Assembly: GCA_964468745.1 (NCBI GenBank)
Contig: CAYXVY010000079.1
Span: 7,660-71,659, forward strand
Length of the DNA: 64,000 bases
From: an uncultured Planctomycetales bacterium
GTDB taxonomy: Bacteria; Planctomycetota; MHYJ01; JACPRB01
Direction of reading: 5' to 3'
A model generated the notes under the pieces. It searched no databases. It was not told the origin of the DNA and worked only from the letters and a program-made list of their open reading frames with translations. Numbering within the stretch: position 1 is the first letter of the stretch; the number at the start of each line of letters is the position of its first letter. The translations under genes and the position numbers were made by a program. Positions 37,626-59,579 of this stretch are shown here, one piece after another.

Positions 37626-38057
37626 CTATTGCTGCAGGGAGCCGCTGCCGGAGCACGTGGTGCAGGACCACCGCTCCTTGCCCTGGCACTTGGGGCATGC
37701 CGCGGCGTCGCCCTTGCCGCTGCAGCGCTGGCACGTCGAATATGTTTGCGGGTCGCGGCCGGTCCCCTTGCAGCCGGAACACTTCGGCCGACCGTCCTTG
37801 CAGTTCGTGCAGACGATGGTCTTTCTGCCGCGGCAGTCGGGACAGGTCTTCGAGCCGCCCATGCCGCTGGCGATGCCGACGATCACCACGACCGCGATCA
37901 GGAGGCCGCCGATGATGATGCCGTACTTGGCGCCGTCTCCCATATCCCGCGGCTTCTTCTTCGCCGCCACGGCGGGTTCGAATTCCGCGCCGCAATGCTT
38001 GCACGACAACGCCGTCGCGCTGACGTCCTCACCACATGCCGGACACGAGCTGGCCAT
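37626..38057 (-). CDS. Membrane-anchored multi-CxxC zinc-ribbon protein (DnaJ-type CxxCxGxG repeats)
   Basis: N-terminal Cys pairs (CPACGED...CKHCGAE), a TM helix (YGIIIGGLLIAVVVIVGIA), then six CxxC pairs (CPDCRGRK, CTNCKDG, CSGCKGTG, CQRCSGKG, CPKCQGKE, CTTCSGSG). Confidence 0.7.
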   Translation of the reverse strand: MASSCPACGEDVSATALSCKHCGAEFEPAVAAKKKPRDMGDGAKYGIIIGGLLIAVVVIVGIASGMGGSKTCPDCRGRKTIVCTNCKDGRPKCSGCKGTGRDPQTYSTCQRCSGKGDAAACPKCQGKERWSCTTCSGSGSLQQ

Positions 38058-38077
38058 AACACAATCCTCCGACGCCG

Positions 38078-39001: not shown

Positions 39002-39007
39002 TCATCC

Positions 39008-41064: not shown

Positions 41065-42182
41065 GGCTTGATCCCGCGGATGGTTTCCTCGAGCTTGTCC
41101 GCCTGGGGCAAGCCTTCGTACCCCTTCCGCGCGCCCTCCAGCAGTTTCATGGCGTCGGCCTTCTTGCCGTCCTTCACCAATTTGCCCGCCTCGGCCACGA
41201 GATCTTTGATCGTGCCGTCTGCCAGGCGTCCGTGCTTCGCGCGCTCTTCCTTCAGTTTCGCGGCGAGCTCCGGCTGTTCCTTCTCCTTGAACTTGTCACC
41301 GAAGTCCTTCAGGAGCTTGAAGGCCCCCACGTGGTCGCGCGTCTCCTTCGAGGCGAGCTTGAGGGCGTCCGCCTGCAGCTTCACCCACAGGGACGGCCAG
41401 GAGACGCTAGCGAACGACTCGAGGATCTTCGTGATCTCCGTCTTGATCTCTGTAAGCTTCGGGCCGTGGCGCGACAGGTTATGCAGGTCGTGTAGCGCCT
41501 TGACTTCGTCGTAGAGTTGCGTCGCGAGCGCCTCGTCCCCGGGCGCCTTCTCCTTCGAATCCTCCCACTTACGGAGGAACGGCAGCACTTCGCTGTCCGC
41601 CTCCTTCTGGCGCTTGATGAGCTCCTCGAGCGGGAAGATGTTCTTGCAAAAGACGTTATATTCCGCGACGCAGTACTTCTTGTACTTCTCGTTGTCGCGG
41701 ACCGAGATGCAGAGTGCGAGCCGCTCGACGGTCTTCTCGTCGCCGAGATCCTTGAATTGCTTGCTCAGATCCGCAATCTCTTCCTTGAGTTTCTTGGGGT
41801 CGTCCTGCGTCATGCCGATCGCCCAGACGATCCCCGCGATTGCGCCGATCGCGAGCAGCGCGCCGCTCGCCATCATGAACGTCCGGCCGGAGATCGCGGG
41901 CTTCCCCCCGCCGACGTGTGAGCGTGCTGATGACCGCGCTGAGGCGCGGCCCGTCGTGCGCTTGTGAGCCCCTGTAGGTTTCTGGACCTGTCCGGTCGCC
42001 TTCTGCACCTGGCCCGTGGCCGGACGTTGCGTTGGAACCTGGCCCGTCGACCCGCGCGTCGGCGCCGTGCTGCCGGTGGTCACCCGCTGAGTGGTGGGCT
42101 TCACCTGCTGCGTGGCGGGCCGGATCGCCTGCGTGGCGGGCTTCGCCGCGGGATTCCTCTGTGTCGACCTTCCGTCGGCCAC
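41061..42182 (-). CDS. Hypothetical membrane-anchored coiled-coil protein with an N-terminal TGQVQK / PATQ tandem-repeat low-complexity region
   Basis: GTG start with GGAGG 6 nt upstream. Repeats (QVPTQRPATGQVQKATGQVQKPTG), TM helix LLAIGAIAGIVWAIG, and a K/E-rich helical C-terminus with a TPR-like end. Confidence 0.55.
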   Translation of the reverse strand: MADGRSTQRNPAAKPATQAIRPATQQVKPTTQRVTTGSTAPTRGSTGQVPTQRPATGQVQKATGQVQKPTGAHKRTTGRASARSSARSHVGGGKPAISGRTFMMASGALLAIGAIAGIVWAIGMTQDDPKKLKEEIADLSKQFKDLGDEKTVERLALCISVRDNEKYKKYCVAEYNVFCKNIFPLEELIKRQKEADSEVLPFLRKWEDSKEKAPGDEALATQLYDEVKALHDLHNLSRHGPKLTEIKTEITKILESFASVSWPSLWVKLQADALKLASKETRDHVGAFKLLKDFGDKFKEKEQPELAAKLKEERAKHGRLADGTIKDLVAEAGKLVKDGKKADAMKLLEGARKGYEGLPQADKLEETIRGIKP

Positions 42183-42345: not shown

Positions 42346-43719
42346 TCATTCGCGGACGATCTCGATCCCGTATTCTCCCGCCTTGCGATACAGCGTCTTA
42401 CGGTCGATTCCCAGCATCTCCGCGGCCGCTTTGACGTTTCCCCTCGTGAGCTTGAGCACCTCGGTGATGTGCCGACGCTCGACCTCCTCGAGCGACTGCG
42501 ACACGTTCGGGGCCGGGCTCAGCAAGGACTTCGGCAGATCCTCCAGCATGATGCGCGATTTCGTATTGAGGATCACGCCGCGCTCGATGACGTTTTCGAG
42601 CTCGCGCACATTGCCCGGCCACGTGTACTGCTGGAATATGTGCAGCGCCTCGGGCGACACATCGAGGACGTTCTTGTGCGTTAGAGCGTTGTACTTCTTG
42701 ATGAAGAACTCCGCGAGGCCGGGAATGTCCTCGCGGCGCTCGCGCAGCGGCGGGAGCGTGATCGTGACGACGTTGATGCGGTAATAGAGATCCGACCGGA
42801 ACTTCTCGTCGCGGATCATCCCCTGGAGGTCTTTGTTCGTCGACGCGACGATCCGCACGTCGATCTTGATCGAGCGCGTATCGCCCAGCCGGCGCGTCTC
42901 GGACTCCTGGAGCGCGCGCAAGAGCTTCGCCTGCATGCCGAGGCTCGTATCGCCTACCTCGTCGAGGAAGAGGGTTCCGCCCGATGCCGTTTCGAAGAGG
43001 CCGGGTTTATCTGCAGTCGCGGTGCTGTGCGCACCTTTAGCGTAGCCGAAGAGTTCGGACTCGAGCAGCGTCTCCGCCATCGCGGCGCAGTTCACCGCGA
43101 CGAATTGCTTCGACGCGCGGTCACTGTGGTGATGGATGGCGCGCGCAACAAGCTCCTTGCCGGTGCCGCTCTCGCCGAGGACGAGGACGGTGCTGGTCCC
43201 GGCTGCGGCCTTGGCGATCGTCTTATAGATCTCCGCCATCGCGCGCGAATGGCCGAGCAGGTTCACGATCGCCTGGTCGGATGCGGGCGCCTTTTTCTGG
43301 GACGTGGCGAGTGATTCCTTCTTCTCGAGCGCGCGCGTGAGCGTCAATTTGATCTCATCGAACTTGAACGGCTTCGACAGGTAGTCGAATGCGCCCGCCT
43401 TCATGGCGTCGACGGCCGTGTCGATGGACCCGAAGCCGGTCATCATGATGACCTGGACCTCGGGGTGCTTGGAACGGAACACCTTGAGGACTCCCAGCCC
43501 GTCCACGCCGGGCATGCGGATGTCGGCAAGCACAATGTCGAAGTCCTCGACGTCCGCCAAGCGGACCGCGTCGTGCCCGGTGAAGACTTCGCGCACCTCG
43601 TAGCCCCACTTGCCGAGCACTTCGCGCAGCATGAGACAGTTTTCGCGGTCGTCCTCGACGAGCAGGATCCGAGCGGCGCGCGACCCTTTCGTGCGTTCCA
43701 CGTCGGTCGCCATACTCAT
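42346..43719 (-). CDS. Sigma-54-dependent response regulator (NtrC family: REC + AAA+ sigma-54 activator + Fis-type HTH)
   Basis: REC domain (ILLVEDD...DIVLADIRMPGVDG), AAA+ motifs (GESGTGKE, ESELFGYAKGAHSTA, GNVRELEN), and a C-terminal HTH (AAEMLGIDRKTLYRK). Confidence 0.9.
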   Translation of the reverse strand: MSMATDVERTKGSRAARILLVEDDRENCLMLREVLGKWGYEVREVFTGHDAVRLADVEDFDIVLADIRMPGVDGLGVLKVFRSKHPEVQVIMMTGFGSIDTAVDAMKAGAFDYLSKPFKFDEIKLTLTRALEKKESLATSQKKAPASDQAIVNLLGHSRAMAEIYKTIAKAAAGTSTVLVLGESGTGKELVARAIHHHSDRASKQFVAVNCAAMAETLLESELFGYAKGAHSTATADKPGLFETASGGTLFLDEVGDTSLGMQAKLLRALQESETRRLGDTRSIKIDVRIVASTNKDLQGMIRDEKFRSDLYYRINVVTITLPPLRERREDIPGLAEFFIKKYNALTHKNVLDVSPEALHIFQQYTWPGNVRELENVIERGVILNTKSRIMLEDLPKSLLSPAPNVSQSLEEVERRHITEVLKLTRGNVKAAAEMLGIDRKTLYRKAGEYGIEIVRE

Positions 43720-43765: not shown

Positions 43766-46624
43766 TTAGCGTCCTCCGGTCACTTCGTCGATCTTCTTCC
43801 TCAGCTCGAGGAAGCGGTCCTTCATGCCGTGCTTCCCGCCGTCGAATTCCGGGTTGTTCTTCTCGAGGTTTTCGATGGCGATCTTCGCGAGCTTGATGTC
43901 GGAGTCCTTGCCGCGCTCGTAGAGGATCGAGATGCCCATGTACTTCGCGAGCCACCACGGCTCGGAGTCTGCCTTCGCCACGCGCAGCAGGTTGCCAAAC
44001 ACGGTCGACGCGCTGTCGAAATAGAACTTCTGCCCCTTGCGGCCCATCTCGTAGAAGACATATCCGAGCTCGAGATAGACGCCGAGCAGGGACGGATTCT
44101 TCTGCAGCACCGGCACGTTGAGCGCGCTGCTGTCGTCGACGAGCTTGTACGCCTTCACGATGTTCTCGTACTGCTCTTTCGCCTTGGCCCAGTCTTCCGC
44201 ATTGTCGGCGGTGAAGCTGTAGCAGCGCGCGAGCCGCGTCATGAGCGTGATCTTCTGCTTGTCCGAGAGCTTGCCGACCTTTCCGTCAACCAGGAGCGTG
44301 TGCACGAACGCGGCGTCCGACCAGTACTGCCGCTCGCCCACCTTCTTCCCCTTGAGATCGAGGAAGGAGATGGTCGTGTCGTCGAGTTGATTGAGCTGCT
44401 TGGCGATGATGTAGAGCGTGTCCGCGACCGCGAGCACGTCGTCCATCGTGATGCGAAGGCCACCGGCGGGACCTTCGTTCAACCACTTGGCGTAGTACCG
44501 GCTGATCTTCTTCAGATTGGCGTTGATTTTCGCCTGCTCGGCCTTGGCCTTGATGAGCTCCTGCGTCTGCTCGTCGAGCTTGATGGCCACGGACTTTGCA
44601 GCTTGGGCAATCGCCGCGCCGTCGGGGAACTTCTCGAACATGCGCTCAAGCAGCGCCATGGCGGGATCGAGTTTGCCGAGCGTGATCATGGCCTGGATCT
44701 GCAGAGCCCAGTTCTTTCCAAGACGCGCGTCGTCGGCCGGGATGTCTTTGGCCACCTTCTCGAGGAACGTGAGGCAGTCGGCGGCGCGGCCGATGGCCTC
44801 GTGCATGTAAATCCGGGCAAGGCCGTCGTTGGCAAGGAAGATCAGGTTGTTGCGCGCCTTCAGCTGGTCGGGGGTGAGACCGGACGGCACGGGGCGCCCG
44901 AGGAATTTCTGGAAGGCGTCCTCCGCCTTCTTGAGCGCAAGTTTCATGTCCGCCTTGAGCGCATCGTCCTTGTTCCCCTTCGACCACTTCAAGAAGGAGT
45001 CGACGCGGTAGCAATGTCCTGCGCGTACAAGCGCCTGCTCGTAGGCCGGCGCCTTCTCGGTCACGGTGAGGTATTTGTCCGCGGCGGCGCGGAGGTCCCC
45101 CTTCGCCTCGACTTCTTCGGCGAGGATGTAGGGGATGTTGATCGCGGCCGGGTGGTCCTTGTGGACGCTTCCGAGATGCTGCATCGCCCGCTGCTTGGCA
45201 TCCTCGTCGCGCTTCTCCCCCGAGACGGCAAACTCGCTGTTGTAGCAGCGAAGCACCTCGTAGCACGACTCGCCCGCGAGCGGATCCTTCGGCGCCAGTC
45301 GGCAGACTATCTCGAATGCGAGCGCCGCCTCATAATTCCGCTTCATCGACTGCATGCATTGCCCGAGCCTGTTGTAGGCCTGCGCGATGTACTTCGTCCG
45401 GTCGGCTTCGGCCGTGCACCCCTCGATGCAGCGACGCAGCGCTCCCGCCGCCTCCTTCCACTGCTCCTTCGAGAGGTAGCCTTCGGCTGCGCTCATCGCC
45501 TGGTCGGGCGACATGGCGAGGACGGCGCTGCCGCCGGAGGCGGCGCCGCCGCTGGAGAGTTTCTTGCGCGCGATCGCGCCGTAGCGACCTTCCGGATCGG
45601 CCTTCTGCACCTCGTTGTAAAGCGAGTTCGCGGCGCCGGACTCCCTCGCGAGCAGGTGAGCGTCCGCCTTCTCCAGCTTGAGCGCCAAGCCGGCCCACTC
45701 CTTCTCGATCCCCTTGTTTTCCTTGAAGACCTGGTCGACGAAGTTCTTCGCATCGCTGGCGCGGCCCGAGCGTGTGTACATCTGGGTCATCGCGATGTAG
45801 CCGTCGTAAATGATGCGGTTGTGGTAGTCGTTCGGACGGATCTTGGCCTCGGCCAGGCGGTGCTTCAGTGCGATGGTGCCGCGCAGTTTGACCTCCGCCT
45901 GCTTCCAGTCGCCGGCCTCGAGCATGCACTGTCCACCGAGGAGCATGGCCTCGAACGCGATGGGGCGGTCGCCGTAGTCGAACTCGAAATCCGTGAGCAG
46001 CTTTCCGGCCTCCTTGAGGATCTTCTTCTTGTCCTCGTCGTCGGCCTGCTTCGAACGTTCGTAAAGCGTGCGGGGCAGCTCGAGGCGGGCGTCCATGGTC
46101 GCGTTCTCGACCTCCTCGGTCTGCTTTTGCGCCTGCAACGTGGCGAGCGTCTCGCGGTAAAACTTTTCAGCCTCCCCGTAGACAGTGGCCGCCTTCTTCT
46201 TCAGTTCGGCGTGCTTGGCATTGTCCGCTTCGACGTCGAGCGCCTCGGTGATGAGCTTGGCCTTGCGGGCCATCGCCCAGCCGATCGAGATGCGCGCGTC
46301 GAGCGCGAGCTTGTGTGCCGCATTCTCCTTCACGAACTTCTGGAGGATGTTGACGGCGTCGTCGACCATCTGCTCCTGTTTCGCCAGGTCGGTTTCCGTC
46401 GAGGCTTGCGCGAGGCGGATCTCCGAGATGATCAGGGGCACGGAGGAGCGAGCGTCGGCGGACCGGGCGCTCTTGAGGATGCCGTTGCAGACCTCCTCCG
46501 CGAGATCAAACCACCCGCGCTGCGTCAGTGTGCGCGCCAAGTCCGAATCCTCGTCCTGCGCCCACGCCGGCGTGGCGCAGGCGATCACGGCCGACACTGC
46601 CACAACCGCACACGCGATGCGCAT
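43766..46624 (-). CDS. Large (952 aa) periplasmic TPR-repeat protein
   Basis: ATG at 46624 with AGGAG 6 nt upstream. Signal peptide MRIACAVVAVSAVIACATPAWAQ. TPR-like repeats run the whole length. The opposite-strand 1029-aa ORF is R/L/V/D-rich antisense and is rejected. Confidence 0.75.
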   Translation of the reverse strand: MRIACAVVAVSAVIACATPAWAQDEDSDLARTLTQRGWFDLAEEVCNGILKSARSADARSSVPLIISEIRLAQASTETDLAKQEQMVDDAVNILQKFVKENAAHKLALDARISIGWAMARKAKLITEALDVEADNAKHAELKKKAATVYGEAEKFYRETLATLQAQKQTEEVENATMDARLELPRTLYERSKQADDEDKKKILKEAGKLLTDFEFDYGDRPIAFEAMLLGGQCMLEAGDWKQAEVKLRGTIALKHRLAEAKIRPNDYHNRIIYDGYIAMTQMYTRSGRASDAKNFVDQVFKENKGIEKEWAGLALKLEKADAHLLARESGAANSLYNEVQKADPEGRYGAIARKKLSSGGAASGGSAVLAMSPDQAMSAAEGYLSKEQWKEAAGALRRCIEGCTAEADRTKYIAQAYNRLGQCMQSMKRNYEAALAFEIVCRLAPKDPLAGESCYEVLRCYNSEFAVSGEKRDEDAKQRAMQHLGSVHKDHPAAINIPYILAEEVEAKGDLRAAADKYLTVTEKAPAYEQALVRAGHCYRVDSFLKWSKGNKDDALKADMKLALKKAEDAFQKFLGRPVPSGLTPDQLKARNNLIFLANDGLARIYMHEAIGRAADCLTFLEKVAKDIPADDARLGKNWALQIQAMITLGKLDPAMALLERMFEKFPDGAAIAQAAKSVAIKLDEQTQELIKAKAEQAKINANLKKISRYYAKWLNEGPAGGLRITMDDVLAVADTLYIIAKQLNQLDDTTISFLDLKGKKVGERQYWSDAAFVHTLLVDGKVGKLSDKQKITLMTRLARCYSFTADNAEDWAKAKEQYENIVKAYKLVDDSSALNVPVLQKNPSLLGVYLELGYVFYEMGRKGQKFYFDSASTVFGNLLRVAKADSEPWWLAKYMGISILYERGKDSDIKLAKIAIENLEKNNPEFDGGKHGMKDRFLELRKKIDEVTGGR

Positions 46625-46653: not shown

Positions 46654-48333
46654 CTACTTCGACTTGCTGCCGGCTCCGAAGACGTTGGCGTACCGGTAGT
46701 ACACCTCGAGCGTCAGGGCGTTGATGGCCACCGCATAGACGCGGCCGCCCTCGAATCCCCAGCGCTCTTCGCCCGGATCCCACGAGCCGTTCTGGCATCC
46801 GTCCTTCGCCGTCTTCTGGTTCGGGACGATAGCGTTTTTCATCGGCTCGTTCCACTTCTTCCACATGCCGCCTTCAGGACCGTCGAACTGGAAGAGGGCC
46901 AGCGACGAGTAGTACCAGTAGTAGAAGTCGATCTTGTTGCCCTTCCACTCGGGCAGGTCGTTGACGAGCAGCTGCACACCGCCGAGGGCCGGATCCGCCT
47001 TCTTCTTCTGCATGAAGATGCGGGCCATGATCGCGACCGCCGTCATCGACTGGTGGTGATCGAAATTCTCGTTCTTGCCCGGCACGAAGACCTTGCCCGT
47101 GCCGCGGTGCGTGTACCCGACCTGGTAGTAGCCGTTCTGGTCCGTGGCCTCGTTGAGCCAGTTGAGCAAGCCGTCATACGCGGCGCGCGGGAACGACAGC
47201 TCCGAAAGCTCCGCGCTCTTGAGCGCCATAACCGCCCATCCGCTGACCGACGTGTCGTTGTCGCCGCACTTCGCGCTGTAGCGCCACCCCTTGCCGGGGT
47301 TCTGCGACGCGACGATGAAGTCGATCGACTTCTGCGCAGGCTCCTTGAGAAGCTGCGTGGCCGTCATGCCGTATGCTTCCGACAGCGACAGCGCCGCGAT
47401 CGTGTGATTGTACATGTACTTCGGGCCGCGCTCGCCGATGCACCCTTCGGGGTCCTGGCGGCTGATCAGCCACTGCATCGCGTTCTTCACGACCTGACCG
47501 AACTTGAGCATCTTGCCGGGGTTGCACGGGTCCGGATACTCGTCGCGGGACAGGTGCGAGTAGCCAGCGCCGAGGAATGCCAGAAGTGAGAGGCCCGTCA
47601 GGCCCGCGTCGTACTCGTCCATGCCGTTGCCGCTGCACTTGCCGCCCGCGCACTGGGTCGTGAAGTGGGACGCCTTCCACGAACCGTCCGGGTCCTGGTG
47701 CCGCGCCAGCCACTTGAGGGCCGCCAACACCGCGCTTTCCGTCGCGCGGGTGCCGCCGCCACGGGCGACGAGGTTCTCACGGCCGCCGAAACGTCCGCCG
47801 TACCGGCCGCCGCTGCCGCCGCCGCCGCCGACGCCCATCGTGTCGTACACGCCCGGGGTCTTGCCGGCCTGCCGGCCACGGAAGCCGCCCGCCTCTCCTG
47901 GGATGTACGAAAGGAACTCCTTCGAGTCGCCCTTCATCTGCTTGTAGTCTTCGCCATCGGCCGACTCGTTGTGGTCGCTCTCCTTCGCTTCGGGGAAGAA
48001 GATCGCCGGCTCTTCCGTCGGAGCGGCGGTGTTGGCATCGTCCTTCGGAATGCCCTTGCGTTCGAAGACGTCGCGCGGACGCTCGATCTCGTTGACGACC
48101 GCGGCGCTCGGCGGCGTGACCGCGACGACCATTTCGCCCTCATCGATCGCCATGAGGCGCTCGACGTAGATGAGCGTCATCGCCAGCATGATCACGACGT
48201 GAAGGCCGGCGGACACCAGCCACCATGGAGCGTTCGAAAGCCACCCGCCGCTATCGCTGTCGACAACGACTTCCTGGGCCTGCTCTTCGGCGCCCTCTTC
48301 CGGTCCCTGTTCTTCTTCGACCTTGCGTCCCAT
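46654..48333 (-). CDS. Membrane-anchored protein with prenyltransferase / squalene-hopene-cyclase-type alpha/alpha-toroid repeats
   Basis: Acidic N-terminal tail, then TM helix WWLVSAGLHVVIMLAMTLIYV, a Gly-rich linker, and repeats of the form LKWLARHQDPDGSW / MQWLISRQDPEGCIG / GWAVMALKSAEL that are characteristic of PFTB/SHC repeats. Confidence 0.65.
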   Translation of the reverse strand: MGRKVEEEQGPEEGAEEQAQEVVVDSDSGGWLSNAPWWLVSAGLHVVIMLAMTLIYVERLMAIDEGEMVVAVTPPSAAVVNEIERPRDVFERKGIPKDDANTAAPTEEPAIFFPEAKESDHNESADGEDYKQMKGDSKEFLSYIPGEAGGFRGRQAGKTPGVYDTMGVGGGGGSGGRYGGRFGGRENLVARGGGTRATESAVLAALKWLARHQDPDGSWKASHFTTQCAGGKCSGNGMDEYDAGLTGLSLLAFLGAGYSHLSRDEYPDPCNPGKMLKFGQVVKNAMQWLISRQDPEGCIGERGPKYMYNHTIAALSLSEAYGMTATQLLKEPAQKSIDFIVASQNPGKGWRYSAKCGDNDTSVSGWAVMALKSAELSELSFPRAAYDGLLNWLNEATDQNGYYQVGYTHRGTGKVFVPGKNENFDHHQSMTAVAIMARIFMQKKKADPALGGVQLLVNDLPEWKGNKIDFYYWYYSSLALFQFDGPEGGMWKKWNEPMKNAIVPNQKTAKDGCQNGSWDPGEERWGFEGGRVYAVAINALTLEVYYRYANVFGAGSKSK

Positions 48334-48347
48334 TATGTCACCTCGAA

Positions 48348-49169
48348 TTACAGTTGCTTCTCGATGGCTACAGGCCTGGCATGCATGGGCGCCGGCTCCT
48401 TCCTCCAGAGCCGCGCCGACAACAGGATGACCGCGAACACCCCCATGACCGCGAGGCCCACGGCGAGCGTCCCCATGTTCCAGGTGTCCGTCGTGCGGGC
48501 CTCGATTACTTCCCGAAGATTGTACCCCACCAGCATCGGCGCCGTCTTGACGCCGTCGCCCCCTCCGTACGTCCCCATCCGGATGAACATCGCGTCCATC
48601 GAAACCACGGCGCGACGGTCCACCGGGGGGGGCGGGCGGAGGTGGTCTACAACATATCCCTCCTCACCCGACAGATCAACCAGGTACGTGCGATGGATCC
48701 ACTCGACCCCCGCTTCCGGGCGCTCCACGCGCAGCGGGCTTGAGTGCACGAGCAGCCCCGTCACGCGCACCGCCTTGCCGCGCAGCTCGTCGGCGTACTT
48801 GGCGAAGTGGCGGTAATCGACACGCAACGGCGAGCTCGCGAATTTCTCCTCCTTCGTCGTGCTCAGGTGCTTCACCACCGTGCACCAGGGGAGGTCCCAC
48901 GCGTCCGTGGGGAGTCCATCCTTCGCCTTATCAAGCACGCCGTCGAAGAGCACTTCATTCGACTTCGGCTGTCCCGGCACGAATGCGTCCTTGCCCGAGA
49001 CCACGTCGCGCACGCGCGCGATGCCCCGATCCTTCATCTTGGGGGCGATCTCGAAGACGACCACTGCGACCACCGAGAGAGTCATGATGGCGACGATCAC
49101 GAGCCAGCGGAACTCGCGCTTGGCCCAGAGGGGGGCCTTTGCGACCGCTGCGTTATTCGTCGTCATCAT
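48348..49169 (-). CDS. Bitopic/double-anchored membrane protein, hypothetical; not TonB-like
   Basis: N-terminal TM (FRWLVIVAIMTLSVVAVVVF) and C-terminal TM (LAVGLAVMGVFAVILLSA). No Pro-rich spacer and no TonB C-terminal motif. Confidence 0.5.
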   Translation of the reverse strand: MMTTNNAAVAKAPLWAKREFRWLVIVAIMTLSVVAVVVFEIAPKMKDRGIARVRDVVSGKDAFVPGQPKSNEVLFDGVLDKAKDGLPTDAWDLPWCTVVKHLSTTKEEKFASSPLRVDYRHFAKYADELRGKAVRVTGLLVHSSPLRVERPEAGVEWIHRTYLVDLSGEEGYVVDHLRPPPPVDRRAVVSMDAMFIRMGTYGGGDGVKTAPMLVGYNLREVIEARTTDTWNMGTLAVGLAVMGVFAVILLSARLWRKEPAPMHARPVAIEKQL

Positions 49170-49224: not shown

Positions 49225-49701
49225 TTACTGTTTTGCCGCCGAAGGCGCGTACTCGATCGGAGCCGCGAACTCGATCCGCTCCATCTGCTCCTTCTTGCAC
49301 AAGTCCATGACCTTGATCACTTCCTGCCACGGCACTTCGGGCGTGGCATCGATCAGAACGGGGAATTCGGTCTTGCCTGCGCGCTTGAAGTCTCCCGACA
49401 TCGAGAGAATGATCTGCATGAGCTCCTGGTCCGTCGACACCGCGCCGCGGTTGCCCACCTTGCGGATCGTGTTGTTCGAACCGCCGTCCCAGCGCATGAA
49501 GACGCGAATTTCCTCGAGCACGACCTTGTCCACCTGCGTCTGGTTCACGCCGCGGTCCTTCGGGAGCCAGGTCTCGATCTTGCCTTCAAGCTGCTTGAAA
49601 TGCATCGAGCACATGAAGAACAGGCATAGACAGAAAATGATATCGACCATCGCCGTAACGTTGATCGATACTGGGTTGTCTTCGCCGCCGCCGCCAGCCA
49701 T
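49225..49701 (-). CDS. ExbD/TolR-family proton-channel accessory protein (copy 2)
   Basis: MVDIIFCLCLFFM matches the ExbD/TolR TM signature (PMIDVvFvLLiFFM). Periplasmic domain of the right size. Confidence 0.8.
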   Translation of the reverse strand: MAGGGGEDNPVSINVTAMVDIIFCLCLFFMCSMHFKQLEGKIETWLPKDRGVNQTQVDKVVLEEIRVFMRWDGGSNNTIRKVGNRGAVSTDQELMQIILSMSGDFKRAGKTEFPVLIDATPEVPWQEVIKVMDLCKKEQMERIEFAAPIEYAPSAAKQ

Positions 49702-49713
49702 ATCAATCTCCTA

Positions 49714-50250
49714 TCAGCTGCGCTTTTTCTTTTCGACCACGGGCATCGCCGCACCGACTTCGATCTTATAGATCCCGACCTTCGCGCACACGTTCATGGC
49801 GCGCTGTGCCAGACCGTACGGCGCCGAGAGGTCGGCCCGTATCTGCACCTTGCATTCCGAGACATGAGGGTTCTTCGGGTCGCGGCCGCGCGAACGGTCC
49901 GCTTCCTTCTTGAGCATGGCACCGAGCTTCTCGGGGTCCGAGAAATCCCGACCCTTGATGCCCACCTTCCAGTGCCGATCCTCGCGGCAGACCTGCTTCT
50001 TGTCGGCCGCCCCGCACTTGACCTCGTACACGTGGTACACGTTGACCGTGACGCGGTCCTGTTCCTTGCCCTCAAGCTGCTTGTCTTCCTTCACGGAAAA
50101 CGCCAGCGGAAGGGCCACCTCTTCGAGCTCGCGCTGACCCATGTCGGCGGAGAGCATGAAGAAAAGGAGCAGCAGGAACATGATGTCGATCATCGGCACC
50201 AGGTTCGGTGAGACGTTCTCGTCGATTGTGATCTTCGCCCTATGTGACAT
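49714..50250 (-). CDS. ExbD/TolR-family proton-channel accessory protein (copy 1)
   Basis: LVPMIDIMFLLLLFFML signature; 178 aa. Confidence 0.85.
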   Translation of the reverse strand: MSHRAKITIDENVSPNLVPMIDIMFLLLLFFMLSADMGQRELEEVALPLAFSVKEDKQLEGKEQDRVTVNVYHVYEVKCGAADKKQVCREDRHWKVGIKGRDFSDPEKLGAMLKKEADRSRGRDPKNPHVSECKVQIRADLSAPYGLAQRAMNVCAKVGIYKIEVGAAMPVVEKKKRS

Positions 50251-50261
50251 GTGTTACCTCG

Positions 50262-50999
50262 CTACTGCGCCCGCTGCTGTTGCTGCGCTTCCGGCGAAAG
50301 CGTCCGCGACAGGAGTTCGCCGATTTCGTTGTTGATGCGAAGCGTGAGATCCGACACCTTGTTCTTCAGGAAGAAGAAAATCGACAGGAACACGATCGCG
50401 ATGAACAGGCCGATCGTCGTGTTGACGAGCGACTCGTACACGCCGTGCGCCAGATCCGCCGGCGTCGGCGACTTCAGCGTCTCGATGACCTGGAAGCTCG
50501 AAATCATGCCCGTCACCGTGCCGAGCAGGCCCAGCAGCGGTCCGATGTTGCCGATGAGCGAAATGTAGCTCGCCTTTGCCTGCAGGCGGAACCCCTCGAC
50601 CGTGGCCGCCTCTTCCGCGCCCCTCTTCACTTCCTCGTAGCCGCCGAAGCTGCGACTGAGCGCGCCGGCGAGGACGCGTCCGCCGTAAGACTTGTCGGCC
50701 GAGGCGAGGGAGTACGCGCCATCCAAGTCGCCTTCCGTCAGGAGCGATTCGCACTCCGACAGCAGCGCCGGATTGGCCAGCTTCGATTCGCTGAAGTTCA
50801 CCATGTACTGGATCGCCAGCGCTGTCCCGATCAGAGATGTGATGACGAGCAGGATGCCGACCAGTCCCGTCGACTTGAACAGGTCGAACCAGCTCTTGCG
50901 CTGGTGTTCGACGGCGCCCTCCTCTTGGGCGAACGCGACCTCGCCGAACATGACCATAATGGCCAAGACACACATGACGGCTACCACGCGACGATTCAT
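50262..50999 (-). CDS. MotA/TolQ/ExbB-family proton channel protein
   Basis: Start at the internal ATG 50999 (MNRRVVAVMCVLAIMVMFG). Three TM helices with the family motif IGNIGPLLGLLGTVTGMISSF. Confidence 0.85.
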   Translation of the reverse strand: MNRRVVAVMCVLAIMVMFGEVAFAQEEGAVEHQRKSWFDLFKSTGLVGILLVITSLIGTALAIQYMVNFSESKLANPALLSECESLLTEGDLDGAYSLASADKSYGGRVLAGALSRSFGGYEEVKRGAEEAATVEGFRLQAKASYISLIGNIGPLLGLLGTVTGMISSFQVIETLKSPTPADLAHGVYESLVNTTIGLFIAIVFLSIFFFLKNKVSDLTLRINNEIGELLSRTLSPEAQQQQRAQ

Positions 51000-51100
51000 A
51001 GGTTCCTCCAATTGCGCGCTTCCACTATTGTGGGCGCGCATGGATCTGTTCCCAGCCAAGCACGCCCGGCCCGACCCCAGACAAAGGGTCTGGAATCAAT

Positions 51101-51117
51101 CGCAAAGGGAATGCCAG
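51101..51117 (-). promoter_or_regulatory. Candidate sigma-54 (-24/-12) promoter for the ExbB operon
   Basis: Minus strand reads TGGCAT-TCCCT-TTGCG, against the consensus TGGCAC-N5-TTGCA with exact GG/GC spacing. It lies ~100 nt upstream of the ExbB ATG, and an NtrC-type activator is encoded in the same cluster. Confidence 0.5.
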
Positions 51118-51305
51118 CCAGAACCCACGAATTCACGCGAAAAACGCTGTCCTCTGTACAGCGTGTGAGCCCCTGTGTGGCAAAACGCCACACGGACTCT
51201 CCCCACAGACAGACAGAGTCTGAGTTCACTGGCGATGCTTAACGCGCGATCGAGCCGGAAGGTTCAGCGGAATACTTGGAAGAGGCTGAAAGTCTGCAGG
51301 GCGCG

Positions 51306-53377
51306 CTAAGTCGCCCGAGGCTGCTCAACCGGCAGGTAGATGGTGAAAACCGTGCCCTTCCCGGTCTCGCTCTTCACCGTGATGTCGCCGTGGTGGTTGC
51401 GCACGATCTGGCGGCAGATCGCCAGACCGAGACCCAGCCCCATGCTTGGCCCCGTGTCGCCCTCGATCCTCTTGGCTGTGTAGAACGGCTCGAACGCCTT
51501 GCTCATCGACGTTGCGTCCATCCCACGACCGGTATCGGCGACGTCGATTCTCACGTGCGCCTCACTTCCCAGCAGCGCGGCGCTCTCTCCCGCCACGCTC
51601 GCCAGATCGGCGGACGAGACGAACGCGCTCGAGACGCGGATCCAGCCTCCCTGGTCCATCGCATCCATCCCGTTCGTGAAGAGGTTCATGAGCACCTGCT
51701 GGATCTGGTCCGCGTCCGCCTCGATCTGCGGAACCTCGCCGTTGGCCTGCACCTCGAGGACGATGCCACGCTTCTGGGTCACCGGCTGCACAAGTTCCGC
51801 CACGCCGCGGACGATTTTCTTGAGATCGACGCGGGCCGGGCGCGGCGGGGGCACGCGCATTGCCTTCAGCACCTCTCGGATGATGGCCGTTAGTCGGTCC
51901 ACCTGCCCATCGATCACTTTCAGGCGCTCGACCACCTTGGGATCAGCGACCTGATCCTGCAGGAGAAGTTGCAGATGGCCGGAGATCGCATTCAGCGGCG
52001 TGCCGAGCTCGTGCGCGATGATGGCGGCAACCTCACCGAGCGTGGCCAGTTTTTCCTGCGTTGTGAGATGCCGTTGCATCACGAAGAGCTTTTCGTTCAC
52101 CGCCTGCAGCTGCAGATTCTTCGCGGCAAGTTCCTCGGTCGCCGCGGCGATCTTTCGCTTCAGCTCCTCGTTGAACCCCTGGATCTGCTCGAGGAGCTGG
52201 CGGTTCTCGTCCAGCGTCCCCTTGAGCTGCCGGATCATCTGGTTGTATGACGTCGCCAGCCATCCGAATTCGCCGCCATGCAGGTCCACGATCGCGTTGA
52301 GATTCCCCTCCGTCGCCTGGCCCATCGACGTCGTGAGTTCCGTGATGGGGCGGCGCACCGCGAACTGGAAGAAGAGCGCGACGCCGAGCGCCAGGATGAG
52401 CAGCATCGCACCCGCGCCCAGGACGAGGTTGGCGCGCAACTCCGGCACGCGCGGCCCCAGGCCCACCTCCTGGGGGAGCATCTGGAAGTGCAGGACCGCG
52501 CGTACGTTGCCGTTGTCGATCAGCGGCGACGAAACGGCGACGTATTCTTTCCCCCCGCGCTGTACGTTGATCTTCTGGACGCGCTGCTCGATGACGGCCT
52601 TGGCGTCGCCGCCACTCGGACCCGTCATGGCGCCCGGGCCGTAGCTCGCGAGGTGGTTCAGGGTGCCGCCGGGGGATGCCACGAGAACTGAGATGTTCGC
52701 CAGACCGCTCGGCCCCTCGACGATGCGCTGCAACTCGGGAGTCATCACGTCTCCGATGACTTCGCGCAGGTCCTCCTCCACGTCGTACGTCGAGACCCAC
52801 GCCTCGAGCCACGTGGAGATGCTGCGGATTCGGTCGTGCACTTCGGTGATCACGGTCACCTCGGGGCGCTGCGGCAGCATCTGAAAGTGGACGACGCCGC
52901 GCGGGGCGGCCTTGTGCATGAGCGGCGCCGAGACGGTGATGTGTTCGCGCCCCTCGAGCTCGACGGTGACCGTCTGCACACCGTTTTCGACGAACGCCTT
53001 TACATCGTCCGGACCGGCCTCGGTCATCGCCCCCTTTCCGTTCCCGGAGATGAATTGCAGCTGACCGTCCTTCGTGGCCAGGAGGACGGAGACGTTTCGA
53101 AGTCCGTCCGCATCCGGCATCCGCTCCTTCAAAATGAGGGTCAGCGCGTCCTTGCGCCGCTTCGAGCGCAGCTCCTCGATCTTGCCCGAGGTCGGCAGCC
53201 GGTCGTGAAGCCGCAGCGAGACCACCCGAATCATGTCGTCGACTTCCAGCGCGTGGATCGCCTCGATCGTGCGGAAGTTGTAGACGTAATACACGAACAG
53301 CGTCGGCAGGACGATCGCCACCAGCAACATGTAAAGCCGGAGGCCCAGGTTGAACGTGATGCCGCGCGGCGCCCGGT

Positions 53378-53381
<4 letters not shown>
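51306..53381 (-). CDS. Sensor histidine kinase: TM, periplasmic double-Cache-like domain, TM, HAMP, HisKA, HATPase_c
   Basis: ATG 53381 overlaps the stop of the upstream Ser/Thr kinase gene (ATGA). H-box IAHELGTPLNAISG; N/G boxes (LMNLFTNGMDAM, DTGRGM, GLGLGLAICRQIV). Two TM helices flank a ~300-aa periplasmic domain. Confidence 0.85.
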
Positions 53382-56011
<2,630 letters not shown>

Positions 56012-56096
56012 TCCTCTCCACTATAGCTGCGGAATTCCTCAAAGGCTTTCACCCGGATTGCAGCTGTTGTGGTACGAGTCATCAAGGAGGCGTTCC

Positions 56097-56795
56097 ATGA
56101 TCCGACTGCTGGCGGCATTCGTAGTTCTCGCGCTCCTGCAACAGGAGGACAAGGAACTGGCGGCATTCAAGCGCGACGCACTGAAACAGTACGCAGAGGG
56201 CGCGTGGAAAAAGATCGTGTGGCAGGCCGACATTCCGGCCGCGCTCACGAAGGCCCAGAAAGACGGAAGGCCGGTCCTCGCCGTGATCACGGTGGGGCAC
56301 ATGGGCAGGAAGGACGCGGCGGATTGCTGACTCGGGGGTCGCCTGACCCGGGGCAGTTCGCTCTCGGACGAGAAGGTGATCGCGAAACTCGACAAGGATT
56401 ACGTGTGCGTGATGCTCAATGTCACGGACGATGGCTTCCCCAAGGACGCGCCCGGCCTCAAGGCGTGGCAGGATGCGTATGAGAAGGATCCGAAATACCG
56501 TGTCGCGTACTCGACGAGCGTCGTGCTGGGCTCGAATGGCGGAGGCGCATTCGCGACATCCGGATGCGGCCACCAGCCCGAGTGGAAAGTGGCGATCAGC
56601 TATCAGCCCGACAAGTACCTCTCGTTCCTGACCGAGGCGCACGAGCGGTTCACGCGAGCGACCGCGATCACCCGGGATCTGACGATCGACAGGGCGACGC
56701 GGGAGGAGAAGCTGAAGGAGATCGCCGCGGCCTGCCTCGAGCAGATCACGGAGGCGGCCCGCTGCAAAGTGAAGGACGGCGAGCGCACCAAATAG
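56097..56795 (+). CDS. Periplasmic thioredoxin-like (Thioredoxin_7 / DsbD-gamma-like) protein with an in-frame TGA at 56328-56330, aligning to the first Cys of the CxxC motif. Candidate selenoprotein; alternatively a nonsense pseudogene.
   Basis: AAGGAGG RBS 7 nt upstream of ATG 56097. Signal peptide MIRLLAAFVVLALLQ. The sequence reads ...GRPVLAVITVGHMGRKDAADC-TGA-LGGRLTRGSSLSDEKVIAKLDKDYVCVMLNV in a single frame. Flanks align to GKPVLVDFyADWCgpCKmmdketFSDPEVikLLNenFVlVKvDv, with TGA falling at the first Cys of the CxxC position. A small hairpin (GGGTC-gcct-GACCC) lies just downstream. Confidence 0.5.
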
Positions 56796-56816
56796 CATCG
56801 CCTATATACTGCATGC

Positions 56817-59579
56817 GTGGCCGATGACAAGACGGAGCGCGCGGGCGAGTCCGCACACCCTGCCGCGCCGGCCCCGCAGACCCGGCAGCTCGGCAATTAC
56901 ACGCTGACACGCGAGATCGCGCGCGGTGGCATGGGAGTCGTTTTCGAGGCCGAGGACCTCAAGCTGCACCGTCGCGTTGCACTCAAGGTCGTTCGCGAGG
57001 GGGACGCGGACCCCGAGTTCATCGCGCGCCTCCATCGCGAGGCGACGATCGCCGCACAGTTGCGCCATCCGAACATCGTCGTCATCCACGAGGTCGGCAG
57101 CGCGCAAGATGTCGCCGGACAGCTGGTTCATTTCATCGCGATGGACTACGTCGAGGGGTGCACGCTCGCGGACGTGCAGCAGCGGAAGGAGACTTCCCGC
57201 GCGGACATGTTGCGCATGTATACGGACGTCGCACGCGCGGTCGCCTACGCGCACGAACGCGGCGTCGTCCATCGGGATCTCAAGCCGCAGAACGTGCTCG
57301 TCGGAACCGGAGGACACGTCTTCCTGAGCGACTTCGGGCTGGCACGCGCGGACTCGATCCGCACGCAGCTCACGCAGTCACAGTCGGTGATGGGGACGCC
57401 GATGTACATGGCGCCCGAGCAGGTCGAGGGACGGACGCGCGAGATCAGCGCACGCACCGACGTCTACGCGCTAGGCGTCATGCTCTTTGAGATCCTCTGC
57501 TCGCGCCCCCCATTCACCGACCTCATTCCCGCACATCTCTTCTGGCAGATCGTGCACGACGAACCGCCTCGCCCCGCGGACCTGGGCGCCACGGTGGCGC
57601 GCGACCTCGAAGTGATCTGCATGAAGGCGCTCGAGAAGGACCCTTTGCAGCGCTACGCGTCGGCCGCCGCACTCGCCGATGACGTGGATCGCTTCAGACG
57701 CGGTGAGCCGATCTTGGCGCAGCCCCCGAGCCTCGTGTACCGCCTTCGCAAGACGATCGTCCGGCGCAAGCGCATGCTTGCGGTCACGGGGATCACGCTG
57801 GTTTTTGCCGTTGCGGCGGTCGCCGCCCTTCTCGCGGAGCGGGGACGCGGCCTGAACGAATTGCGCAAGCGTACGCAGACGTCGCTCGACGCCGCTCTCG
57901 CCCTGCGACGCGCGGGCAGCGTCGAAGGTATGCAGCGGTTCGCGACAGAGACTGAGGACGCCTGCCGCGAAGCGATCGAGCGGAAACCTCGACTTGCGGA
58001 ACCGCACTACCTGCTGGGACGGATGCAACGCGCCCTGATGAAGGACGACGAGGCGCTCGCCGCGCAGGAACGGGCGCTCGCACTGGACGCGGATTTTGCC
58101 CCTGCGCTCTACGAGCGTGTCGTGCTCACGACGCGGCTGTATCGCTGGCGCGTGGAAGAACTCGTGCAATCGCGCTGGGGTGAGGAGGGGCACATCCTCG
58201 TCCGGCAGGAGCGGCAGGGCGCGCGCCGCATCCCCAGCCTGCCGGAGCTGGCAAAGGAAGATGCGCAGGCGCAAACACTGCGCCTACGTATCGACGCGGA
58301 CCTCAAACGCATCGACGAACTCGTCACGAACGGGGACTCGCGCATCGGCGCCGGCGAACTCGCCTGCGTGCGCGGGCTGCTCGCGTATGCGCGGGGGGAC
58401 GCGGCGACGGCGCGCGATCAGCTGGGGTCCGCCATTCGAATCGCCCCGACCCTCGAAGAGGCCTACGAGTCGCTGGCGAGCCTCGAATTGGACGGCGCTG
58501 GATACGAGGCCTCCGTCGAGTGGTTCACGAGGGGACTGGAGAAGGATCGCGGATACATCGGTCACATCGAGGGTCGCGCCCAGGCGCGCATGCTCTGGAC
58601 GATCGACTTGCGTCGGCGGAGCGAGGACGCTTCGAAACGGATCGACGAGACGATCGACGACGCAACCCAGGCCCTGCAGCGGGATCCAAACCGCACACGG
58701 GCGCGCTTCTGCCGCGGCATCGCGCTGATCTATCGCATCGAAGCGAAAGTCACGCGACGGGGCTACACCCCCGGGCTCTACGTCGACGCGCTCGCGGACT
58801 TCGCGGAGCTTTCCCGGCAGAAACCGGACGATCCCGACGGCTGGATCTGGCACGGTGCATGCACGATGGCCGAGGGGTATGCGCACTATGTGCGGGGCGA
58901 GGACCCCCGGGCGACCGCGCGAACGGCCATCGCCGACCTCGATCGCGCGACCGCGCTCGCTCCGTCGCTCGATCTGCCGTTCCTCTTTCGCGGAATCTGC
59001 CACGGCGTAATGTCGCTTTACGCGGTCACGCGCAAGGAGGATCCGGCGCAGCCGAGCGGCGAGGCCATCGCCGACCTCGATCGCGCGCTGGCGCTCAACG
59101 CGAACAGGGCGGAGACGTGGATGTGGCGGGGACTCGCGCGCGCGGCGCTGGCCGGGTATGCGGCGACGCGCGGCCAGGATCCCCTGCCGAATTACGACGC
59201 CGCGATGAAGGACCTCGACAAGTCGGTGGAGCTCGAACCCGGAAAGCCGGAGGTCTGGACGTGGCGCGGGCAGACGCGGGCCACGTGGGCGCTCTATCAG
59301 GCGATCCAGCTCAAGAATCCGATCGCAACCTACGAGCTTGCGATCCTGGACTTCGACCGCGCCCTGCAGATCAACGCCTCGCACGTGCACGCCCTGCGCA
59401 GTCGCGGCAACGCCCACGAGATGATCGGAATCACGCACCAGGTGCTGAAGCGCGACGCAACGGAGTCCTTCACGCGCGCGATCGCGGATTACGAAGCGGT
59501 GATAGGCATCGATCCGGAACTGGAGCCGGGAGTGCGCGGGCAGCTCGCGAACTGCAAGCGGCGGCTCGAGAAGAAGTAG
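56817..59579 (+). CDS. Ser/Thr protein kinase fused to TM and TPR-repeat domains
   Basis: GTG start. Kinase motifs ARGGMGVVFEA, HRDLKPQNVLV, DFGLAR, GTPMYMAPE; TM helix VTGITLVFAVAAVAALLA; about 600 aa of TPR repeats. Confidence 0.85.
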   Translation: MADDKTERAGESAHPAAPAPQTRQLGNYTLTREIARGGMGVVFEAEDLKLHRRVALKVVREGDADPEFIARLHREATIAAQLRHPNIVVIHEVGSAQDVAGQLVHFIAMDYVEGCTLADVQQRKETSRADMLRMYTDVARAVAYAHERGVVHRDLKPQNVLVGTGGHVFLSDFGLARADSIRTQLTQSQSVMGTPMYMAPEQVEGRTREISARTDVYALGVMLFEILCSRPPFTDLIPAHLFWQIVHDEPPRPADLGATVARDLEVICMKALEKDPLQRYASAAALADDVDRFRRGEPILAQPPSLVYRLRKTIVRRKRMLAVTGITLVFAVAAVAALLAERGRGLNELRKRTQTSLDAALALRRAGSVEGMQRFATETEDACREAIERKPRLAEPHYLLGRMQRALMKDDEALAAQERALALDADFAPALYERVVLTTRLYRWRVEELVQSRWGEEGHILVRQERQGARRIPSLPELAKEDAQAQTLRLRIDADLKRIDELVTNGDSRIGAGELACVRGLLAYARGDAATARDQLGSAIRIAPTLEEAYESLASLELDGAGYEASVEWFTRGLEKDRGYIGHIEGRAQARMLWTIDLRRRSEDASKRIDETIDDATQALQRDPNRTRARFCRGIALIYRIEAKVTRRGYTPGLYVDALADFAELSRQKPDDPDGWIWHGACTMAEGYAHYVRGEDPRATARTAIADLDRATALAPSLDLPFLFRGICHGVMSLYAVTRKEDPAQPSGEAIADLDRALALNANRAETWMWRGLARAALAGYAATRGQDPLPNYDAAMKDLDKSVELEPGKPEVWTWRGQTRATWALYQAIQLKNPIATYELAILDFDRALQINASHVHALRSRGNAHEMIGITHQVLKRDATESFTRAIADYEAVIGIDPELEPGVRGQLANCKRRLEKK

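Follow-up and report, generated by a model that had tools for sequence, protein, structure and literature searches.

A conserved -24/-12 promoter before a planctomycete ExbB operon and its linkage to an NtrC-family regulator with a GAHSTA loop

We analyzed a 64,000-nucleotide stretch of DNA (the window) from an uncultured Planctomycetales bacterium (GenBank assembly GCA_964468745.1, contig CAYXVY010000079.1, positions 7,660 to 71,659). Its central feature is a spacer of 306 nucleotides (nt) between a sensor histidine kinase gene and an operon headed by exbB, which carries a sigma-54-type -24/-12 element and, upstream of it, a perfect inverted repeat (the dyad). The histidine kinase gene overlaps a receptor-type Ser/Thr kinase gene, and an NtrC-family response regulator gene lies farther along the operon. 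The features on which the argument depends are the following, with protein lengths in amino acids (aa), lengths of DNA sites in base pairs (bp) and TM standing for transmembrane.

51101..51116, minus strand: sigma-54-type -24/-12 element, TGGCAT-TCCCT-TTGCG, from the sequence as read and its conservation in relatives
51175..51193, not assigned to a strand: perfect inverted repeat GTGTGGC-GTTTT-GCCACAC, with a 17-bp core, TGTGGC-N5-GCCACA, at 51192-51176
51000..51090, minus strand: predicted exbB 5' leader, its start placed near 51090 from the usual sigma-54 geometry
50262..50999, minus strand: ExbB/TolQ-type proton channel subunit gene, 245 aa (MotA_ExbB, E 6.6e-25; N-terminal signal peptide)
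51306..53381, minus strand: sensor histidine kinase gene, 691 aa (Pfam HAMP, HisKA with His457, and HATPase_c)
53378..53381, minus strand: ATGA overlap of the Ser/Thr kinase TGA (53380-53378) with the histidine kinase ATG (53381-53379)
53378..56011, minus strand: receptor-type Ser/Thr protein kinase gene, 877 aa (N-terminal kinase, one TM helix at 312-330, C-terminal TPR region)
42346..43719, minus strand: NtrC-family response regulator gene, 457 aa (Pfam receiver with Asp66, AAA+ and HTH_8)

On the minus strand, positions 51116..51101 read TGGCATTCCCTTTGCG, with GG at 51115-51114 and GC at 51103-51102, and thus have the GG-N10-GC arrangement. Compared to the consensus TGGCAC-N5-TTGCW, both doublets are exact and the two deviations (TGGCAT and TTGCG) fall outside them. 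The 3' end of the element is 102 nt from the exbB ATG (50999-50997), on the same strand, and a ribosome-binding site, GGAGGA, is found at 51009-51004. The initial annotation, made from the sequence alone, had placed TGGCAT-N5-TTGCG at these positions with exact spacing and about 100 nt upstream of exbB, and direct reading agrees on both counts. The motif alone was rejected as proof of a promoter: with one mismatch permitted it occurs 2 times in the window against 1.57 expected, which is chance level, and 1-6% of shuffled spacers score as high as the real one. The significance of the element therefore derives from its conservation across related loci, and only from that.

Public genomes and metagenomes were scanned with ExbB, and contigs encoding regulator homologs were added, giving 53 related loci (L numbers below), all from uncultured Planctomycetota. 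The block exbB-exbD-exbD followed by genes for 273-, 559- and 950-aa proteins is syntenic in the relatives. When sites were scored with a weighted consensus in which GG-N10-GC was obligatory, a strong -24/-12 site was found before exbB in every close relative with upstream sequence (11 related loci), compared to a background rate of ~0.014 scored sites per 420 nt on one strand. The sites before exbB are as follows.

L001 and L017: TGGCACAGGATTTGCA
L002: TGGCACGGGATTTGCG
L003 and L004: TGGCACGTYCTCTGCG
L018: TGGCACGTCCTCTGCA
L005, L019 and L020: TGGCAA-N5-TTGCG
L021: CGGCACCGGAGTTGCA
L043: TGGCACAGGCTTTGCA
L053: TGGCATGGGATTTGCG

Alignment of the sequences on the element gives TGGCA and TTGC an information content of 1.6-2.0 bits, compared to 0-0.6 bits for the flanks. 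Conservation is confined to these two blocks, which is the profile expected of a sigma-54 promoter. Two overlapping -24/-12 elements 14 nt apart are present at L005:688-717 and L019:9738-9767, with TTGCG of the first continuing into CGGCA of the second; the upstream candidate was used, and in L020 the second one is wrongly spaced. A small membrane-protein open reading frame (ORF) of ~35-55 aa (for example ...VTIMDRFLTQLRPVVLIGTILVLCLVVYAIAWALKRP) is conserved between promoter and exbB in several relatives (L001:about 9790-9960; L002; L005; L043:7113-7274, minus strand; L053:2344-2505) and is lacking in the window, L004 and L018.

Perfect copies of the dyad also precede the element in L001/L017, in L043 (twice) and in L053. 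Copies with one mismatch each are found in L003 and L004 (two apiece) and in L005, L018, L019 and L020 (one each), while L021 has a two-mismatch copy only and the L002 contig ends short of the expected position. Of the 14 dyads with one mismatch or none in 431 kilobases (kb), 13 adjoin a -24/-12 element. The dyad arises in 0.1-0.2% of shuffled spacers, and dyad and promoter together in none of 1000 shuffles per spacer. In the window, the dyad lies upstream of the element, with 69 nt from its center to the GG of -24. The distances found are 49, 59, 69, 79-81, 123-126, 145 and 156 nt, to which L043 adds two off-series values. Among periods of 6-16 nt, the best fit is 10.7 nt (R 0.62, p about 0.01-0.03, from 12 values that are not fully independent). 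Since the distances fit a period of ~10.7 nt, they suggest that an activator needs to be positioned on one specific side of the helix. We propose that the dyad is an enhancer and the putative binding site of the regulator of this cluster. The promoter picture drawn by the initial annotation is thus borne out by the relatives; the enhancer dyad had escaped it.

Two loci extend this arrangement beyond exbB. L043 has a divergent spacer of 240 nt with two perfect dyads in its middle, flanked by two outward-facing -24/-12 elements, one of which faces the small ORF and exbB and the other the overlapping kinase and regulator genes. L001/L017 contain a second dyad and -24/-12 element, TGTGGCATTTCGCCCCA and TGGCATGCGCTTTGCG, with a spacing of 81 nt that matches their first pair. 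This second pair (L001:7153-7256, equal to L017:2342-2445) precedes a thioredoxin/TPR gene and a 428-aa gene, and would mark a second member of the regulon. The 428-aa product is a zinc-ribbon membrane protein, and neither downstream gene has a homolog in the window.

A reading of the dyad as terminator of the histidine kinase gene was rejected, because no T-run follows it and because it is kept in the divergent L043 spacer, where no gene runs into it. A scan for intrinsic terminators found none in the window spacer and, over 18 kb, only terminator-like matches near background. Other features of the spacer are recorded here as observations. A second inverted repeat, ACGCTGT-N7-ACAGCGT (51144..51164, minus strand), lies between the dyad and -24 and is not evidently conserved. 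Several loci share an A/T-richer patch (GAATTC or AAATTCAG), located ~20-35 nt upstream of the element, that might act as a bending site. The predicted exbB leader (50997..51092, minus strand) has a calculated fold of -42.9 kcal/mol (z = -2.96 compared to shuffles) that partly pairs GGAGGA; an Rfam search of leader and spacer returned no family match and one chance hit on the spacer.

The histidine kinase consists of a TM helix, a periplasmic region of ~290 aa, a second TM helix and the HAMP, HisKA and HATPase_c domains; its best NCBIfam matches, AtoS and ZraS, are under the cut-offs. The periplasmic region is internally duplicated (residues ~98-171 and 231-304, 44.6% identity, E 5e-19). The orthologs have 554-575 aa, with one of 829 aa, and most are ~130 aa shorter with a single periplasmic copy. 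Kinase and regulator genes are adjacent or overlapping in L005, L019, L043, L050, L051 and L052, and both are in the cluster in L053. Their placement relative to the exbB block varies (distal, divergent, or split as in the window), and the linkage persists through these rearrangements. As the two genes are linked to the cluster throughout, we argue that they encode the cognate sensor and regulator of the exbB operon. Comparative evidence thus supports well the promoter and its proposed tie to this two-component system.

The regulator has clear Pfam matches to Response_reg (E 5.6e-29), Sigma54_activat (E 1.2e-67) and HTH_8 (E 2.3e-14), and also to AAA_lid_14. The receiver contains Asp66, a Thr-containing MMTG at 92 and the Lys of SKPF at 115. 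The ATPase motifs are intact (Walker A GESGTGK at 182, Walker B LFLDE at 250, ASTN at 292), followed by FRSDLYYR at 307, PPLRERREDI at 323 and GNVREL at 369; the sensor I and II and arginine-finger regions are likewise intact. Its best NCBIfam matches, AtoC, NtrC and ZraR, are all under the equivalog cut-offs. The initial annotation had assigned an NtrC-family activator gene to 42346-43719 at the distal end of the operon. The domains and the same-strand packing confirm the gene; the divergent loop of the supposed activator had been overlooked.

This loop (L1) is ESELFGYAKGAHSTATADKPGLFE, in which GAHSTA (residues 229-234, codons 43035..43018, GGTGCGCACAGCACCGCG) replaces GAFTGA in a gap-free alignment of the same length. 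Of the GAFTGA residues taken as the mark of NtrC-group enhancer-binding proteins, Phe, Thr and Gly are all substituted. Among the best 120 homologs listed, the 69 closest (57-100% identity) have GAHSTA in 65 cases, GSHSTA in two, GAFSTA in one and GAFTGA in one; below that identity nearly all have GAFTGA, with one GAYTGA and two loops that the pattern did not capture. The loop is near-invariant in the GAHSTA clade while the residues flanking it on both sides vary, and so it is under strong constraint. The variant is also rare: in a library clustered at 50% identity, His does not take the place of the Phe in any of the 150 best representatives, where the variants present are GSFTGA, GAFTDA, GAFTSA, a few GAYTGA and two GSFSGA. 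"GAHSTA" in the sense of an activator loop was not found in the searchable literature, and the clade represents a loop variant undescribed in the literature searched. One homolog, P0013 (71% identity, 20 member sequences), has GAFSTA, with the Phe kept and the Ser-Thr-Ala of the variant; it may represent an intermediate stage in evolution, or else a reversion inside the GAHSTA clade.

The sigma-54 signature persists in the promoters linked to GAHSTA regulators even between lineages in which regulator identity is only 64-72%. The same holds for more distant members: L047 (regulator identity 59%) has near-perfect elements, GGGCACGCGGTTTGCT and TGGCACACCGTTTGCT, directly upstream of ORFs, and L050 (62%) has a divergent pair of near-perfect elements, TGGCACGTCATTTGCT and TGGCACGTCATTTGCG, also directly upstream of ORFs. 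L048 encodes the nearest homolog with canonical GAFTGA, and its downstream genes are the same as in GAHSTA loci. Thus, the loop changed inside one orthologous system, and the -24/-12 elements, as far as the compared loci show, did not decay after the change. L047 also encodes, beside its GAHSTA regulator, a second regulator (L047:3205-4437) that has receiver and AAA+ domains, a degenerate, shortened L1 (RTLFGYDDAREGGPASGS) and no HTH_8.

GAFTGA is treated as essential for contact with sigma-54: its Phe and Thr are described as contacts of sigma-54 region I, and changes of Phe or Thr mostly abolish activation (PMC3162934, PMC7175178, PMC3467059). GAFTGA served as a filter in two large surveys of sigma-54 activators (PMC3162934, PMC12316311), which would therefore have discarded the GAHSTA clade. 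With GAHSTA in place of GAFTGA, a sigma-54 output would need a non-canonical mechanism. We nonetheless consider the best explanation of the observations as a whole, held with moderate confidence, to be that the two-component system drives a sigma-54-type promoter via a non-canonical activator loop. Direct activation of sigma-54 by the GAHSTA protein itself is, on the comparisons made here, somewhat better than an even prospect. The more general proposal, that GAHSTA functions in nature as a substitute for the "invariant" GAFTGA and remodels the sigma-54 holoenzyme at conserved -24/-12 promoters, is evenly poised between right and wrong. Its function might need a matching change in sigma-54 region I.

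Several points weigh against this explanation. The mutational literature concerns residues that have here all been exchanged. There are other regulators lacking GAFTGA that work at sigma-70 promoters. The window element departs from the consensus at the two positions given above, and neither the window nor 570 kb of related loci yielded an RpoN box, a sample too small to inform. The L003/L004 lineage has the promoter and dyads with no regulator gene within the available flanks.

The first and last of these points would fit a true sigma-54 promoter driven by a canonical GAFTGA activator encoded elsewhere, with the GAHSTA protein binding the dyad and only modulating the promoter. It could then serve as a repressor, an anti-activator or an architectural factor, its loop being unable to engage sigma-54. 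We regard this arrangement as unlikely, and such a modulator role as equally so. The dyad stands at classical enhancer distances and is helically phased, the protein keeps every ATPase motif, which would be needless in a passive binder, and the loop itself is strongly constrained. Additionally, the L043 dyads also serve the operon of the regulator itself, and no second activator gene is present near any ExbB locus.

The precedent of sigma-70-acting regulators without GAFTGA (PMC6158489), together with the small-sample absence of an RpoN box, bears on a different possibility, in which the GAHSTA regulator is a sigma-54-independent activator of the kind of Rhodobacter capsulatus NtrC, Caulobacter NtrC or VpsR, and TGGCA-N6-TTGC is the site of another factor. 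In the accessible descriptions of the documented cases, however, L1 is deleted or shortened, whereas here it has its full length and carries substitutions only. The conserved positions and the exact GG-N10-GC match the sigma-54 signature, with background outside; the elements always face the downstream gene, including those of the divergent pairs in L043 and L050. A scan for sigma-70 consensus sites found none in the spacer or the surrounding 18 kb, although it is weak for this phylum because the consensus may not suit Planctomycetota. Sigma-54 regulons have also been reported in Planctomycetota (PMC12316311). We consider a sigma-54-independent activator unlikely, slightly more so than the modulator role.

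Under the favored explanation, in which the two-component system drives a sigma-54-type promoter, the 306-nt spacer between histidine kinase and exbB would constitute an enhancer-dependent control region of the sigma-54 type. RNA polymerase with sigma-54 would sit on the -24/-12 element at 51116-51101. The membrane histidine kinase, via His457, would phosphorylate Asp66 of the regulator, which would then bind the dyad at 51192-51176 and, by hydrolyzing ATP, lead to promoter opening. The unusual step would be the contact with sigma-54 by the GAHSTA L1 loop. The resulting transcript is predicted to span exbB, two exbD genes, three envelope-protein genes and the regulator gene, and may extend into downstream genes. 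The products would include a proton-driven motor of the TolQ/ExbB-TolR/ExbD type. As the regulator gene lies inside the operon that it is proposed to control, positive feedback would result. In the window genome, the histidine kinase gene would have moved to a place upstream of the promoter, where ATGA joins it to the receptor Ser/Thr kinase gene.

The genes of the operon are tightly packed on one strand, with gaps from exbB to the regulator gene of 11, 12, 55, 14, about 29 and 46 nt. The NCBIfam TolQ/ExbB matches of the exbB product are under the cut-offs. The remaining operon genes and the distal conserved genes, the latter identified by tblastn against the relatives and occupying 37638..42182 on the minus strand, are given below.

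49714..50250, minus strand: ExbD/TolR-type gene (Pfam ExbD, E 1.5e-18)
49225..49701, minus strand: second, different ExbD/TolR-type gene (Pfam ExbD, E 6.3e-15)
48348..49169, minus strand: conserved envelope protein, 273 aa, with a TM helix at each end (no Pfam or NCBIfam match)
46654..48333, minus strand: membrane-anchored protein, 559 aa, with weak squalene-cyclase-like repeats (SQHop_cyclase_C, E 1.1e-9)
43766..46624, minus strand: secreted helical-repeat protein, ~950 aa, with a signal peptide from Met81 of the listed ORF (no Pfam match)
41061..42182, minus strand: 373-aa protein
40123..41064, minus strand: 313-aa protein
39008..40333, minus strand: 441-aa ORF
38078..39001, minus strand: 307-aa protein
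near 37638..37787, minus strand: short zinc-ribbon-like homolog

Both ExbD-type proteins retain the transmembrane Asp (MIDIMF and MVDIIF). A sequence search of the PDB gave weak squalene-cyclase matches only for the 559-aa protein and nothing for the ~950-aa protein; like the 273-aa protein, the 373- and 313-aa proteins have no match in Pfam or NCBIfam. No TonB, TolA or vWA transducer is recognizable in the window: by inspection, the 273-aa protein lacks a His in its TM helix and a Pro-rich linker, as would be looked for in a TonB/TolA transducer. The scan of cluster genes likewise revealed no TonB-dependent receptor, TolB or Pal. A vWA-domain gene is present just downstream of the kinase-regulator pair in L043 (L043:11962-13401), which recalls the vWA force transducers proposed for the tolQ/tolR cassettes of the PVC group (PMC12204202). 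The operon thus appears to encode a proton-driven envelope machine.

The Ser/Thr kinase matches Pkinase (E 1.9e-47) and several TPR families in Pfam, and its catalytic motifs are present (VALK at 53 with Lys56, HRDIKPGN at 146 with Asp148, DFG166 and APE192). A divergent kinase at 56817..59579 on the plus strand is its paralog, with 38.6% identity across about 900 aa, and the two receptor kinases with TPR regions thus stand back to back across a spacer of ~800 nt. An ORF at 56082..56798 between them was dropped as a likely antisense artefact (Arg-rich, no matches). The junction with the histidine kinase gene reads ...TCCATGAAC..., and the histidine kinase start is supported by its orthologs, which begin MKKTPRGIGLNLAFKLY... 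and match MNRAPRGITFNLGLRLY... in the window. No GGAGG-like ribosome-binding site precedes this ATG in the upstream sequence GTACAATCGAATCC, so translation of the histidine kinase probably depends on the Ser/Thr kinase gene, and the two proteins are probably made together. The ATGA overlap at 53381 was already reported by the initial annotation and is confirmed by direct reading; the translational coupling that it proposed fits the overlap and the absent ribosome-binding site, but the pairing is not kept in the relatives.

In none of the relatives examined is this Ser/Thr kinase gene upstream of the histidine kinase gene, a pairing unique to the window genome. In L003 the histidine kinase gene lies upstream of the promoter, with no Ser/Thr kinase match in the 7.9 kb upstream; it does so also in L004, where ~650 nt of sequence precede it. 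In the other relatives the histidine kinase gene either adjoins the regulator gene or occupies the cluster's far end. The joint sensing that had been proposed to feed a sigma-54 output is therefore a lineage-specific possibility and not a conserved design: the promoter is tied to the histidine kinase and regulator pair, whereas the GAHSTA loop and the unconserved Ser/Thr kinase pairing speak against the scheme as drawn.

Links to phosphothreonine signaling are found elsewhere in the cluster. Five relatives have a homolog of the 373-aa protein with an FHA (phosphothreonine-binding) domain at its N-terminus.

L017:14022-15503: FHA-domain homolog of the 373-aa protein
L004:10019-11353: FHA-domain homolog
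L049:5154-6470: FHA-domain homolog
L048:1580-2935: FHA-domain homolog
L053:11361-12827: FHA-domain homolog

The window protein aligns to residues 145-488 of the L053 protein, with the FHA part missing, and its N-terminus is a low-complexity stretch rich in Thr, Gln and Pro. Loss of the FHA domain in the window coincides with the Ser/Thr kinase-histidine kinase arrangement. In the L005/L019 lineage, a HAMP-cyclase-kinase protein is encoded immediately upstream of the promoter. The FHA homologs and this HAMP-cyclase-kinase tie the cluster repeatedly to phosphothreonine signaling, and both would count, as does the histidine kinase gene without its own ribosome-binding site beside an exbB with GGAGGA, against a reading of the ATGA overlap as ordinary operon packing after a local rearrangement, in which the Ser/Thr kinase does not act on the two-component system. 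That reading draws, in turn, on the absence of the pairing from all relatives examined, on a 4-nt overlap like ATGA between two other genes of the cluster, on the side-by-side position of the two paralogous kinases, and on the histidine kinase and regulator, both of which lack an FHA or other phosphothreonine-reading domain by Pfam. We find the arguments for ordinary packing evenly balanced; cross-talk of the Ser/Thr kinase with the two-component system is correspondingly possible, with about an even chance.

The GAFTGA loop is the defining test for sigma-54 activators, and this clade replaces its Phe, Thr and Gly yet keeps the new loop near-invariant, retains all ATPase motifs and remains associated with conserved -24/-12 promoters whose enhancers are phased. 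If GAHSTA proteins do activate sigma-54, they would offer a natural experiment on the coupling between ATP hydrolysis and promoter opening, filters based on GAFTGA would undercount sigma-54 activators, and the counts for Planctomycetota would need revision. If they do not, they would constitute a novel type of regulator that operates at sigma-54 promoters. Either way, the promoter, the putative 17-bp operator and the sensor kinase provide a regulatory handle on a widespread, uncharacterized planctomycete motor cluster of the TolQ/TolR type.

In Myxococcus xanthus, networks of Ser/Thr kinases and FHA proteins feed transcription regulators and are encoded beside NtrC-family regulators. The present cluster differs: in relatives, one of its membrane proteins bears the FHA domain, which the window genome lacks at this place.

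As an NtrC-family protein without the canonical GAFTGA, the window regulator resembles the sigma-70-acting NtrC of R. capsulatus, Caulobacter NtrC, NtrX, VpsR, TyrR, DhaR and HupR. In the accessible accounts, L1 is deleted or shortened in R. capsulatus NtrC, Caulobacter NtrC and NtrX, which act at sigma-70 promoters, and several proteins of this kind need no ATP hydrolysis. In contrast, the window loop is full length and conserved, the ATPase motifs are intact, and the predicted targets have a conserved -24/-12 element.

The operon is similar to the motor cassettes of the PVC group, which, in the accessible passages of PMC12204202, have a tolQ-like gene together with two differing tolR-like genes, accompanied by TPR and vWA partners, and are uncharacterized. 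Those passages contain nothing on sigma-54 or on regulation of the cassettes. The window likewise has one ExbB/TolQ-like gene, two different ExbD/TolR-like genes and TPR-like partners; unlike the cassettes described there, it lacks a vWA or TonB/TolA-like transducer and has the 273-, 559- and ~950-aa proteins.

The closest parallels for the control system are NtrB/NtrC at glnAp2, AtoS/AtoC and ZraS/ZraR, which share with it a HAMP-HisKA-HATPase kinase and a receiver-AAA+-HTH_8 regulator. As in systems of the NtrB/NtrC type, the GG-N10-GC promoter has a 17-bp dyad with N5 spacing upstream of it, and the system probably regulates its own expression. Unlike in those systems, the kinase gene of the window stands apart from the regulator gene and is coupled to a Ser/Thr kinase gene, and the regulator combines a GAHSTA loop with a TGTGGC-N5-GCCACA dyad and, as its proposed target, a motor operon of the TolQ/ExbB type.

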